Source: a virus
IMG/VR virus record: IMGVR_UViG_3300035698_019747
Location: 64,001-128,000 of that record
Direction: 5' to 3' (one strand)
DNA: 64,000 nucleotides
Part shown: positions 8,189-51,810 of the stretch, in pieces
How the letters are laid out: each line of letters begins with the position of its first letter
Position numbering within the stretch: position 1 is the first letter of the stretch
Position numbers and translations under genes: made by a program
The notes under the pieces: model-generated
Told to the model about the DNA's origin: nothing
Database searches by the model: none
The model's input: only the letters and a program-made list of their open reading frames with translations

Positions 8189-8983
8189 GTGCTTGAATCT
8201 TTAATAGAACTTTTCTCAAAAACAAATATACCCAGTGGTGTGATTGGTGGATCACTTGCTCTACTATCGGCATTACTAATAGCCTTATTTAAGTCTAAGG
8301 TCTTCCAAGAATTATTAACAGGTATATTTAACTGGAATTTTTCAATGAAAGGAAAAATATTTAAACCCAAAGAAACCAAAAAAACCAAATTAGACGAAGA
8401 AGTTATGGAAGAAAGCTTATCTGAGGATGACCTTTTAAACCATGATATATTTAATTATATAGATTTTTGGTTAACCAACCAAATCCCTAGTATGACACTT
8501 AAAAGTAGATATAGAACGGCAGTATTCAGAAAATATTTAAAAATATATTTTAAAACATATAAGTACAAACTGCATGAATATGTAAAAAGTAGAGAATATG
8601 AAAAATATACCTCTGTCGAATTAAGAAAGTCAATATTTGATCTTTTTCTTAATATTACAAAGGCCATGGAAAATGATATGATGAGTAATGATATTCCTAA
8701 CGTCATAATAACTAAGATGAAACACGCACATAGAAGTAGAAATGAATTAGCATTAGAGTTAACCATATCAGTGTGTGACCGAAACATATATGATACAAAG
8801 TTGAACAGAATGAAAGTATATTCCATACTTGGACTTATATACCCTATACTAGATAACACTATAACGAATATAGAACCAGTTTGTGATAATTTAAATGGTG
8901 AGTTAGGTGGTTTATCAATTGATGGTTTCACTGAACCTATTAGCAGACATAATCATGAAGATATCGATGGTACTGAACTTTAA
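8189..8983 (+). CDS. Membrane-anchored hypothetical protein
   Basis: N-terminal hydrophobic segment GVIGGSLALLSALLIALF; TTAATATATA motif at 8158. Confidence 0.7.
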   Translation: MLESLIELFSKTNIPSGVIGGSLALLSALLIALFKSKVFQELLTGIFNWNFSMKGKIFKPKETKKTKLDEEVMEESLSEDDLLNHDIFNYIDFWLTNQIPSMTLKSRYRTAVFRKYLKIYFKTYKYKLHEYVKSREYEKYTSVELRKSIFDLFLNITKAMENDMMSNDIPNVIITKMKHAHRSRNELALELTISVCDRNIYDTKLNRMKVYSILGLIYPILDNTITNIEPVCDNLNGELGGLSIDGFTEPISRHNHEDIDGTEL

Positions 8984-40629: not shown

Positions 40630-40698
40630 ATGAGAAAAATGATTTTAAATACTACATTATTAAGCATCAGCATTATTTTATTATTAATGGTGTATTGA
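40630..40698 (+). CDS. Leu/Ile attenuator leader peptide MRKMILNTTLLSISIILLLMVY
   Basis: 6 Leu codons, all TTA; 4 Ile codons, all ATT/ATC; directly upstream of tRNA-Leu(UAA) and tRNA-Ile(GAU). Confidence 0.85.
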   Translation: MRKMILNTTLLSISIILLLMVY

Positions 40699-40756
40699 GT
40701 CAGTATTGAAAAATTTTTCAACGCCCGACTCTTAATAAGTGTCGGGTTTATTTTTT
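40693..40756 (+). promoter_or_regulatory. Antiterminator/terminator switch of the Leu/Ile tRNA attenuator
   Basis: Terminator GCCCGAC(40723-29)/GTCGGGT(40741-47) plus TTATTTTTT; an alternative stem GAGTC(40697-701)/GACTC(40727-31) around TTGAAA/TTTCAA overlaps both the leader stop codon and the terminator 5' arm. Confidence 0.8.
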
Positions 40757-40762
40757 ATATAT

Positions 40763-40848
40763 GGTTGAGTGGTGGAATTGGTAGACACGAGGGGTTTAAA
40801 ACCCCTTGGTCAGAAATGATCGTGCGGGTTCGAGTCCCGCCTCGACTA
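40763..40848 (+). tRNA. tRNA-Leu(UAA)
   Basis: GTGGAATTGGTAGACAC D-arm, AGGGG-TTTAAAA-CCCCT anticodon arm, long V-arm, GGTTCGAGTCC. Confidence 0.95.
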
Positions 40849-40866
40849 CTAAAAATCACATATTTT

Positions 40867-40940
40867 AGTCTAGTAGCTCAGTTGGTTAGAGCGTTTCCCT
40901 GATAAGGAAAAGGTCGCAGGTTCAAGTCCTACCTAGACTA
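40867..40940 (+). tRNA. tRNA-Ile(GAU)
   Basis: AGCTCAGTTGGTTAGAGC, TTTCC-CTGATAA-GGAAA, GGTTCAAGTCC. Confidence 0.95.
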
Positions 40941-40959
40941 CTAATTAAATATAATTATT

Positions 40960-43003: not shown

Positions 43004-43081
43004 GGTGGGAGATTAGGCTATGTGGTAAGTAGCACAAGCCTTCTAAAAGCTTGGACAGGGGTTCGACTCCCCCTCTCACCA
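43004..43081 (+). tRNA. Atypical tRNA-like RNA; anticodon CUA (amber) or UCU in an expanded loop
   Basis: GGTGGGAG/CTCTCACC acceptor, GCTA/TAGC D-stem, CAAGC-CTTCTAAAA-GCTTG anticodon arm, GGGG-TTCGACT-CCCC T-arm. Confidence 0.7.
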
Positions 43082-48116: not shown

Positions 48117-48361
48117 GTGTATCTTATATTATAGTTATTTAATTTATATTTTTCTAACTTTGATATGATATAATCTATATCAGTATCAGACCAAGTTATA
48201 TTGCCCCCTAATGGGTATCGTTCATTATCTAGAATTTTGATAAACCTATTAGCCACCTTCACTCTCTTTTCATTTAATTTATCCTTAAAAGATTTGTCTA
48301 TTCCATCGATAGTTTCTTGGTTTATATTTAGTTCAAAAAATTTTTTTAATTTCTTGGGCAT
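48113..48361 (-). CDS. Hypothetical protein
   Basis: MPKKLKKFFE start; TTAATATATA at 48388-48379. Confidence 0.65.
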   Translation of the reverse strand: MPKKLKKFFELNINQETIDGIDKSFKDKLNEKRVKVANRFIKILDNERYPLGGNITWSDTDIDYIISKLEKYKLNNYNIRYT

Positions 48362-48398
48362 ATTTCTTTTCTTTCTTTTATATATTAAAAAAAAATTG

Positions 48399-48406
48399 TA
48401 TATTTG
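48399..48406 (+). promoter_or_regulatory. Bacteroidota sigma-70 -7 element TATATTTG (representative copy)
   Basis: Also upstream of genes at 2610(-), 7193(-), 13368, 14227(-), 35459, 39879, 41711, 42379, 46238, 51788(-), 58734. Confidence 0.8.
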
Positions 48407-48409
48407 TAT

Positions 48410-48615
48410 AAAATAGCCAGAGGTTGTATCGCTCCACGGAGAGGAAATTCAGGACAACATTGCTCACGGAAGGAGGGTTAGACAAAAGCCCGTTTGCACT
48501 TCCCAGGTTGCAACACGAACAGACTTAGTAGGTGAGCAATACTTTTATAGTCGGGTTAGTGGCAAATAGGTAAATGATACATTAAAACAGGATTCTGATT
48601 ACGCTCAGCTATTTT
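48410..48615 (+). ncRNA. rnpB: Minimal RNase P RNA (type A catalytic core, S-domain nearly absent)
   Basis: CR-I GAGGAAATTCAGGA (48441-54) and CR-V ACAGGATTCTGATTA (48587-601) form P4 with bulged U and compensatory changes; P1, P2, P5+CAA, P6, P7, P15-P17, L15 GGU and CR-IV TAGGTAAATG all identified; TATATTTG promoter at 48399. Confidence 0.9.
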
Positions 48616-48654
48616 TTATTTTTAAACAAAAAAATTAAATACTAATATATACAT

Positions 48655-49203
48655 ATGAACAATAAAACAATCGCCATTTTTGATTTTGATCAAACACTTT
48701 ACATGTGTCCACTCCCAACACCTGAGAATCGAGAGAAGCTATCTAAAGCTATAGATTATACAAGAAGTGGGTGGTGGGGCAGAGGTGAAAGCCTTAACTT
48801 AGATGTATTTGATATACTTCCCAACCCACACATTAAGAGTCAGTATGATATACATTCTGAAATTGGTAATAAACGATTTATGCTAACTGGTAGAATCTTT
48901 CGACTTAAAGAAGCTGTTAGAAATGTGTTTAGAAAAGATGGTTTTAGTTTCGATGGGGAATATTATGCAGATGGTAGAAGAACTATAGATTATAAATTAG
49001 CTATTATTGATGAATTAGTTGAAACACACAATCCATCAACTATATATTTCTATGATGATAGAGAAGAACATATTCAAGAATTTCGTACTAAAGGGGACGA
49101 GTTAAAGGATACTAAAGGAATTGACTTTTACCAGTACCAAGTTTTTATTGATGGTTCTGGTATTATTGAAGTTCCATATGGACAGAAAGGGGTGGTCGAA
49201 TAG
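48655..49203 (+). CDS. HAD phosphatase (PNKP / Swiss-army-knife RNA-repair-like)
   Basis: FDFDQTL, MLTGR, YK, FYDDREEH. Confidence 0.8.
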   Translation: MNNKTIAIFDFDQTLYMCPLPTPENREKLSKAIDYTRSGWWGRGESLNLDVFDILPNPHIKSQYDIHSEIGNKRFMLTGRIFRLKEAVRNVFRKDGFSFDGEYYADGRRTIDYKLAIIDELVETHNPSTIYFYDDREEHIQEFRTKGDELKDTKGIDFYQYQVFIDGSGIIEVPYGQKGVVE

Positions 49204-51116: not shown

Positions 51117-51139
51117 AAATATATATTATTATTTATTTG

Positions 51140-51211
51140 CACGCATGGTGAGACTCGAACTCACATCAACGGTTTTGGAGACCGTTATCCTACCAATTGG
51201 ACGACACACAT
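51140..51211 (-). tRNA. tRNA-Trp(CCA)
   Basis: ACGGT-CTCCAAA-ACCGT, GTTCGAGTC; GU-rich acceptor stem. Confidence 0.9.
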
Positions 51212-51219
51212 ATTTCTTG

Positions 51220-51313
51220 TCTAGAGAACGGGATTTGAACCCGTGGAGCATACTATCTGTGTACACTCAGCCGTTTCCAAGACGACTTGCTTAAACCACT
51301 CGCACATCTCTAG
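51220..51313 (-). tRNA. tRNA with UGG anticodon (Pro) on a long-variable-arm body
   Basis: CTAGAGA/TCTCTAG-A, GAGTGGTTTAA D-loop, GTCGT-CTTGGAA-ACGGC, 8-bp V-arm GAGTGTAC/GTATGCTC, GGTTCAAATCC. Confidence 0.85.
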
Positions 51314-51317
51314 TTTG

Positions 51318-51390
51318 TCGGGAAGGTAGGAATCGAACCTACTAACTGATGCTTCCAATGCACCCGTGCTTAAACCTTAGTCACTTCCCG
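51318..51390 (-). tRNA. tRNA-Pro(UGG), A37, irregular D-arm
   Basis: CGGGAAG/CTTCCCG-A, GGTGC-ATTGGAA-GCATC, GGTTCGATTCC. Confidence 0.85.
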
Positions 51391-51398
51391 ATATTTTG

Positions 51399-51472
51399 TA
51401 TAGTAGGTGGGATTCGAACCCACGTGCTCCACATCCCAAATGTGGCGAGATAAACCTCTCCTCTACTACTAT
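51399..51472 (-). tRNA. tRNA-Pro(UGG), G37 but A1-U72
   Basis: ATAGTAG/CTACTAT-A, CCACA-TTTGGGA-TGTGG, GGTTCGAATCC. Confidence 0.88.
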
Positions 51473-51481
51473 ATGTATTTG

Positions 51482-51552
51482 TTGGGCTAACAGGACTCGA
51501 ACCTATAATCACTCCTTCAAAGGGAGCTGTTATGCCATTTAACTATAGCCCA
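51482..51552 (-). tRNA. tRNA-Gln(UUG)
   Basis: TGGGCTA/TAGCCCA, GCTCC-CTTTGAA-GGAGT, GGTTCGAGTCC. Confidence 0.93.
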
Positions 51553-51554
51553 AT

Positions 51555-51585
51555 AAAAAACCCACTCGGTTATGAGCGGGTTTTT
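51555..51585 (-). terminator. Second terminator of the Gln/Pro/Trp tRNA attenuator
   Basis: AAAAACCCGCTC-ATAACC-GAGTGGGTTTTTT on the minus strand. Confidence 0.85.
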
Positions 51586-51604
51586 CTGTTATATATTGTA
51601 TATA

Positions 51605-51637
51605 ACAGAAAAGTCCTCTCATAAATGAGAGGACTTT
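51605..51637 (-). terminator. First terminator of the Gln/Pro/Trp tRNA attenuator
   Basis: AAAGTCCTCTCAT/ATGAGAGGACTTT followed by TCTGTT. Confidence 0.75.
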
Positions 51638-51658
51638 GCTTTAAAAGTTTTAAAAATC

Positions 51659-51742
51659 TCAAGCAATAGTCTCCCATCCGAATAATCTCGGTTGCGGTTG
51701 CCATTGCTGGTTGATAGTGATATTTAAAACTAAATTTTTCAT
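51659..51742 (-). CDS. Gln/Trp/Pro attenuator leader peptide MKNLVLNITINQQWQPQPRLFGWETIA
   Basis: Run CAG CAA TGG CAA CCG CAA CCG directly upstream of the tRNA-Gln/Pro/Pro/Pro/Trp cluster; N-terminus resembles the Leu/Ile leader. Confidence 0.88.
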   Translation of the reverse strand: MKNLVLNITINQQWQPQPRLFGWETIA

Positions 51743-51810
51743 TACTGTATATATATTATTTTTGTTGTTCCTTTCTTAATTATAGTGCAAATATATGAAA
51801 AAGTTTTATA

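Follow-up and report, generated by a model that had tools for sequence, protein, structure and literature searches.

A putative attenuator with two terminator-like hairpins in series upstream of five tRNA genes in a salt-lake jumbo phage

The window analysed here, a stretch of 64,000 nucleotides, comprises bases 64001-128000 of a 152-kb virus record (IMGVR_UViG_3300035698_019747) that has a G+C content of 28% and an estimated completeness of 56%. Its minus strand carries a short leader ORF, two terminator-like hairpins (H1 and T2) with a further hairpin (H2) between them, and five tRNA genes (Table 1); genes for a T4-like gp32 SSB, an endolysin, Thg1 and a PNK-like protein are also found in the window. 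The phage carrying this unit is a jumbo (giant) phage from a salt lake: salt-lake metagenomes are the best-matching runs, and the regulatory stretch is letter-identical in two salt-lake DNA assemblies, one of them possibly the source sample. In the related phages L080, L101 and L102, genes for the anti-CBASS proteins Acb1 and Acb3 and a PARG-domain gene are clustered beside gp32. The standard genetic code fits the record, and stop-codon recoding was rejected, since reading through TAG or TGA left coding density the same as with table 11. A tRNA with a CUA anticodon, resembling an amber suppressor, adjoins Thg1 upstream (window 43007-43080, plus strand) in this genome without sign of TAG recoding, and a search of window 48361-48655 for an RNase P RNA gave no Rfam match at E <= 1.

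Table 1. Features of the Gln/Pro/Trp unit, in window coordinates
Feature	Position	Strand	Remarks
Sigma-A -7 promoter element, Bacteroidota-type (TAnnTTTG)	51788..51795	-	Sole such site in 51540-51800
Phage promoter-like motif AATATATA	51750..51757	-	15 nt upstream of leader ATG; promoter function presumed
Leader peptide ORF, 27 codons + TGA	51659..51742	-	Gln/Pro/Trp make up 8/26 codons after Met
Putative sensor block Q12-Q13-W14-Q15-P16-Q17-P18 (QQWQPQP)	51689..51709	-	Read-through fold only with A-site at about 12-18
Predicted protector segment	51701..51708	-	Pairs 51669-51662 without ribosome, giving OFF fold; P = 0.97
Leader segment able to pair T2 3' arm (51569-51562) directly	51678..51685	-	-7.5 kcal/mol; closes three-way junction in ON fold
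Segment A, predicted H1 antiterminator strand	51661..51679	-	Leader codons 22-27 and first stop base, including W23
Segment B: 5' flank, 5' arm and loop of H1	51623..51641	-	Pairs A in ON fold; duplex -17.6 kcal/mol
Putative terminator 1: hairpin H1 and 8-nt tail, 4 leading U	51605..51637	-	GC-closed stem 51634-51613
Hairpin H2, 14-bp palindrome	51582..51612	-	Present in both states; holds H1 3' arm beside T2 5' arm
Predicted relay antiterminator	51570..51624	-	Outer 7-bp helix 51624-51618 with 51576-51570; extends H2
Putative terminator 2 (T2), six leading U	51553..51585	-	Stem 51580-51561; 8 nt from tRNA-Gln
tRNA-Gln(UUG)	51481..51552	-	
tRNA-Pro(UGG)	51398..51472	-	
Atypical tRNA, read as Pro(UGG)	51317..51390	-	A32 and C1-G72/A73; missed by ARAGORN, or called Phe at relaxed score
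tRNA with UGG anticodon, long variable arm	51219..51313	-	
tRNA-Trp(CCA)	51139..51211	-	

Two of the tRNA genes are unusual. The atypical tRNA-Pro belongs to a family in huge phages (also in L001, L002 and L105-L112) with odd anticodon loops, showing A32 here and C33 or G38 in relatives; such variants are possibly nuclease-resistant or frameshift-related. The gene that follows it sets a Pro anticodon on a Ser/Leu-like body, and the amino acid carried by its product is uncertain.

The TAnnTTTG element, which we take to be the Bacteroidota sigma-A -7 consensus, is common to the Gln/Pro/Trp unit and to an Arg/Ser unit of the same genome; judged from this promoter element alone, the host is probably a member of the Bacteroidota, and a search for sigma-70 region 2 gave no match in the record at its 56% completeness. 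Copies of AATATATA cluster, genome-wide, 11-14 and 25-29 nt upstream of gene starts, and the motif is likely a phage promoter whose transcripts would have very short 5' leaders. H2 contains a non-consensus copy of it, at window 51597 on the minus strand. The sequence-only reading had named a separate tRNA promoter downstream of the hairpins as an observation that would contradict it, and at the level of motifs no host-type promoter was found between the hairpins and the tRNAs.

The leader is enriched in Gln, Pro and Trp codons (binomial P = 8e-5 against genome codon usage), and seven of the eight fall in the block at codons 12-18, which matches the downstream tRNAs for Gln, Pro (three genes) and Trp; sensing of Trp would depend on a single codon, W14. 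Both Pro codons are CCG, which is indeed as rare in this genome as had been supposed (29/1085 Pro codons, 2.7%), and the second of them also has a structural role in the RNA. Six related Pro leaders use CCG in 6/14 and CCA in 1/14 of their Pro codons; in the genes next to them the shares are 5% and 58%. These leaders are kin and not independent. We infer from the sequence that the leader is translated.

Compared with shuffles, the region as a whole has a folding z of -8.2, and it holds mutually exclusive protector, antiterminator and terminator helices. All the segments that had been named as pairing partners occur once each, on the minus strand, within 51555-51742. H1 (51637-51610, -16.9 kcal/mol, stem -13.5 kcal/mol) is followed by the tail UUUUCUGU, and T2 (51585-51556, -16.4 kcal/mol) by UUUUUUAU, after which tRNA-Gln starts at 51552. 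Pairing of the leader 3' end with the 5' arm of H1, as the sequence-only reading proposed, exceeds chance (P = 0.0012 against synonymous recoding, 0.001 against shuffles), in a helix longer than had been stated: 51679-51661 pairs with 51641-51623 through 18 bp with two bulges (the A:B helix), burying the entire 5' arm of H1 and three bases of its loop, so that the toehold for H1 is removed. The proposed relay pairing of the 3' arm of H1 with the 5' arm of T2 was likewise confirmed, with corrections. Pairing of the H1 loop and 3' arm with the T2 5' arm and loop reaches -10.3 kcal/mol (P = 0.006 against pair-permuted T2), and none of 47 natural terminators pairs as strongly with H1 (best -8.9). 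However, the inner 14 bp form in both states and the 5-nt middle blocks contribute only 2 pairs; the part that switches thus consists of the outer 7 bp and 2 bp across an internal loop. The 14-bp palindrome between H1 and T2 was matched by 0/5000 shuffles, and H2 has a formation probability of 1.0 in the ON and OFF folds alike. The relay accords with control of T2 through H1, but it is not the only route, since the direct leader helix (51685-51678) can also pair the 3' arm of T2 (P = 0.005 against shuffles, and a nonsignificant 0.31 against synonymous recoding). Neither this direct helix nor the protector helix (51708-51701 with 51669-51662) figured in the sequence-only reading.

Folding at equilibrium was computed with the ribosome footprint as a constraint and with the transcript cut off at the point where T2 could begin to form. 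Under these conditions the read-through fold was dominant only with the A-site at codons 13-17, 12-16 or 11-15 for footprints of 9, 12 and 15 nt, respectively, and the probability of the ON fold rose as high as 0.9, for A-site codons about 12-17 alone; the read-through fold was absent at W23, at the stop codon and without a ribosome, where both terminators form. When equilibration is complete, H1 and T2 prevail despite a stalled ribosome, so the switch depends on kinetics; such an advantage of the completed terminator at equilibrium is usual in attenuators. The barrier from the A:B helix to H1 is 11 kcal/mol and rises to 16-18 after the relay helix closes, and the ON fold is the energy minimum once 51570 has emerged.

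In a home-made coarse-grained co-transcriptional simulation, RNA free from any of positions 51694-51678 onward gave ON, whereas RNA free only from 51676 onward gave OFF, as did a ribosome at W23 or at the stop codon and the absence of a ribosome; a stall at P18 would thus be sensed only if the ribosome covers no more than about 9-10 nt past the A-site codon. In the ON runs the leader:H1 helix forms, H1 never does, the freed arm captures the 5' arm of T2, and T2 is absent. The outcome was unchanged for k0 of 1e5-1e6 and pauses of 1-5 s, with one unstable case, a stall at Q12, in which H1 transiently reached 0.9 at the terminator-1 pause. The prediction that one stalling event flips both terminators in series thus emerges from equilibrium and kinetic folding alike, for a stall at codons 12-18. 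With H2 broken in silico, T2 formed in 37% of stalled transcripts, and with the T2 loop changed it formed in 32-64% when the direct helix was hidden; with the direct helix available, the T2-loop mutant did not restore T2 in silico. A "flipped T2" in-silico mutant counts as weak evidence, since its fold came out in a shifted register. When segment A was stripped after terminator 1 but before 51570 had emerged, H1 and T2 re-formed in the simulation, whereas release after its emergence left read-through committed (both for k0 1e4-1e6).

Automated calls, not all of them curated, gave 48 leader-terminator-tRNA units in this genome and in some 12 further huge-phage records; the related single-terminator units (LR745206, LR756500-2 and IMG/VR records) are unpublished as far as we found. 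Two terminator-like hairpins occur in one of the 48, the present unit, and the other 47 have one, while sensor codons match the cargo tRNAs in all three units of this genome and in most of the 48. The second unit of the genome (window 40630-40941, plus strand) has a 22-codon Leu/Ile-rich leader and one terminator with an interrupted U-tail ahead of tRNA-Leu(UAA) and tRNA-Ile(GAU); the third, the Arg/Ser unit (L133, G000:C1:53770-54452, outside the window), has a Ser/Arg leader and one terminator followed by tRNA-Arg(ACG) and four tRNA-Ser genes. Searches for the same two-terminator layout found no homologue, pattern scans across contigs from viruses, metagenomes and genomes giving nothing or chance hits, and the relay helix is for that reason without covariation support. 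Contigs of gp32 relatives held no Gln/Pro/Trp unit, L078 having two single-terminator units, and an alignment with the Gln/Pro/Asp leaders of other phages was uninformative outside the 5' end and T2.

The Arg/Ser unit is a paralogue of the Gln/Pro/Trp unit, with a near-identical promoter and 5' UTR, and the two are collinear over the stretch that starts at the promoter and ends with the H1 tail (score 210, against 118 +/- 17 for other units). H1 aligns with the only terminator that the Arg/Ser unit has, and both the H1 stem and the A:B helix show compensatory changes; it starts 24 nt past the leader stop (others 22-48, family median 26), and it is bound by the leader end in the way that family leaders bind theirs. 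The end of T2 reads three G, six U, A and U, then tRNA-Gln, and this 8-9-nt T2/tRNA-Gln junction recurs in 5/5 other Gln-first units, whereas units of other kinds lack it. The paralogy of H1 with the Arg/Ser terminator and the conserved T2 junction argue that both hairpins are terminators by descent. Since H1 and T2 come from different unit types, and the double layout is unique among the 48 units, the unit looks chimeric, with an Arg/Ser-type promoter-leader-terminator cassette set ahead of an ancestral Gln-unit terminator that the relay would have made switchable; the direction is unrooted.

The unit might also be a relay of the his type with one working terminator, in which H1 has decayed to an anti-antiterminator or pause hairpin and T2 alone terminates, sensing and relay being the same. 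The tail of H1 is the weakest of the set: it has four leading U where 43/47 others have six or more, its U score of 3.96 is the lowest of 49 terminators (median 5.24), and its RNA:DNA hybrid, at -5.7 kcal/mol, is the most stable of the 49. The U-run of H1 is moreover accounted for by its requirement in H2 pairing, the middle hairpin of the E. coli his leader lacks a U-tail, and a fully efficient terminator 1 would leave the relay little selection. Yet H1 keeps canonical spacing, its -13.5 kcal/mol stem and 12/14 bases of the common family tail; its terminator score (d'Aubenton-Carafa-type) is still positive, at +16 exceeding the +11.7 of the genome's sole Leu/Ile terminator; and interrupted tails serve as sole terminators in other units. 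We consider a decayed H1 rather unlikely and substantial regulated termination at H1 likely.

The converse, that only H1 is regulated while T2 is constitutive or independent, and is bypassed by a phage antitermination factor or made irrelevant by an internal tRNA promoter, appears very unlikely. Cross-complementarity of H1 and T2 is above chance, T2 lies so close to tRNA-Gln (8 nt) that there is no space for a promoter downstream of it, and no host -7 box was found downstream of 51788. Antitermination factors are possible in jumbo phages, a NusG-domain gene being present in the relative L076, and there is the AATATATA copy within H2; however, most promoter-like copies have a T just before the motif, which this one does not, and a promoter there would sit upstream of T2, which would then terminate. 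With its motif non-consensus and upstream of T2, an internal promoter in H2 was judged unlikely. The switch could also be real but read general translation stress or an arrest-peptide effect and not cognate tRNA supply, since a ribosome slowing anywhere between about codons 11 and 19 can flip the fold, the exact range varying with the footprint, and the CCG codons double as RNA structure. This we hold to be very unlikely: across units with different amino acids the sensor codons track the cargo tRNAs, and related Pro leaders, though not independent of each other, avoid CCA and favour CCG. Finally, a view of the palindromes as repeats at the level of the DNA, or as processing signals, without any part in attenuation would agree with H2 being a perfect AT-rich palindrome of the kind made by template switching, but the codon match, the position-specific switching and 47 parallel leader-terminator-tRNA units make it extremely improbable.

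The reading that we favour, and think probable, is a leader-peptide transcription attenuator, dependent on the ribosome, with two active intrinsic terminators in series that gates five phage tRNA genes; that the unit is an attenuator with a working relay to T2 we regard as very likely. In the OFF state, with a ribosome that reaches the stop codon, or with no ribosome and the protector paired to segment A, H1 would form and a fraction of polymerases would stop at terminator 1, while those leaking past it would meet H2 and T2 and stop there. In the ON state, a ribosome slowed on the Gln/Trp/Pro codons 12-18 would cover the protector and leave segment A free to bury the 5' arm and loop of H1; the freed H1 3' arm, positioned by H2, would then capture the 5' arm and loop of T2, and the polymerase would proceed into the tRNA genes. 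The signal would be a shortage of charged or intact tRNA, termination would occur at H1 and at T2, and the events would presumably follow in this order. The "tight OFF control" claimed earlier has to be qualified: two stops in succession would multiply down the leak, but a single decision would open both, so that T2 casts no independent vote.

Until closure of the relay helix, which comes when the polymerase is about 45 nt past terminator 1, the A:B helix would be only metastable, and a ribosome resuming before that closure would allow H1 and T2 to re-form; T2 would thus be a second check on the duration of the stall. The simulations suggest that T2 acts as a stall-duration filter, catching the leak of terminator 1 and demanding a stall that lasts longer by about 45 nt of transcription, and the two-terminator layout predicts a measurable threshold of stall time.

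In the his leader, six alternating segments (A-F) relay the signal via a middle hairpin to the final terminator. Its leader peptide senses charged tRNA, a stall leads to the antiterminator, and the E+F stem is named in the description of this attenuator (PMC10065794). The phage unit is like his (E. coli / Salmonella hisL) in charged-tRNA sensing and in the relay through a middle hairpin to the final terminator; in his, however, only one hairpin is terminator-like and the middle hairpin is not followed by a U-tail, whereas the middle hairpin of the phage unit descends from a terminator, and the phage unit adds a constitutive spacer hairpin, three sensed amino acids and a cargo of tRNA genes. 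In our control fold of his the antiterminator was not reproduced at the chosen length, and only the his tail was used in the comparison. Tandem terminators are found in some rimP leaders (PMC2965389), and ermK of Bacillus licheniformis is outlined as a ribosome-stalling attenuator with two adjacent Rho-independent terminators (PMC4335068, citing Kwak 1991). The phage unit is likewise a predicted stalling attenuator, with two terminator-like hairpins of which H1 is a putative terminator; ermK, however, responds to antibiotic-dependent arrest and controls a methylase gene, where the phage unit has tRNA genes and sensor codons matched to them. The two-terminator layout is thus a refinement with precedents in his and ermK.

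The thrL, ilvL (ilvGMEDA) and trpL leaders follow the same logic of protector, antiterminator and terminator and sense several amino acids; they differ from the phage unit in controlling biosynthesis genes with a single terminator, in place of tRNA genes with two terminator-like hairpins. None of the Rfam Trp, Thr, Phe, His and Leu leaders or Bacteroid-trp matched at the gathering cut-off, the scores far below it including Thr_leader (RF00506, 28.4 against 55), Phe_leader (RF01859, 30.2 against 55) and Trp_leader (RF00513, 21.1 against 41), and the T-box riboswitch gave no match at the gathering cut-off or at E <= 5. The phage unit works like the attenuators of amino-acid operons, yet it is no strict member of that group, its cargo being tRNA genes. 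No published report of leader-peptide control (attenuation) of tRNA genes was found in a search that covered few subscription journals.

The unit bears on how phages regulate their tRNA genes, and on whether these serve codon supply or act against tRNA-cutting defence. The level of phage tRNA expression decides escape from such defence in the cases outlined for T5-like tRNA-Tyr against retron-Eco7 and tRNA-Lys against PrrC (PMC11555353). In the parts of that account dealing with T5-like supplementation, a strong promoter drives the tRNAs and no feedback sensor is described, whereas the phage unit has a putative leader sensor. A codon-matched leader would be a built-in reporter of which tRNAs fail in infection, and makes the question testable. 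We suggest, only tentatively and as a doubtful extension, that the codon-matched sensors meter out phage tRNAs upon specific loss of host tRNAs, for example through cleavage by a defence nuclease, with the fused terminators as a strand-displacement timer that passes long stalls only; if this were true, the timer would tell genuine tRNA loss apart from the usual slowness with which rare codons are decoded.

The genome itself allows the origin of the layout to be read: apparently a cassette was duplicated and became joined to an older terminator. The single-terminator units of huge phages resemble the Gln/Pro/Trp unit in leader N-terminus, codon-cargo match, spacing and terminator types, but the H1-H2-T2 relay is seen in none of them. 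One unit in LR756501 (L097, about 8320-8530, minus strand) has a 42-codon leader and a longer multi-hairpin relay, with 48 nt from stop to terminator and a second U-run 20 nt downstream.
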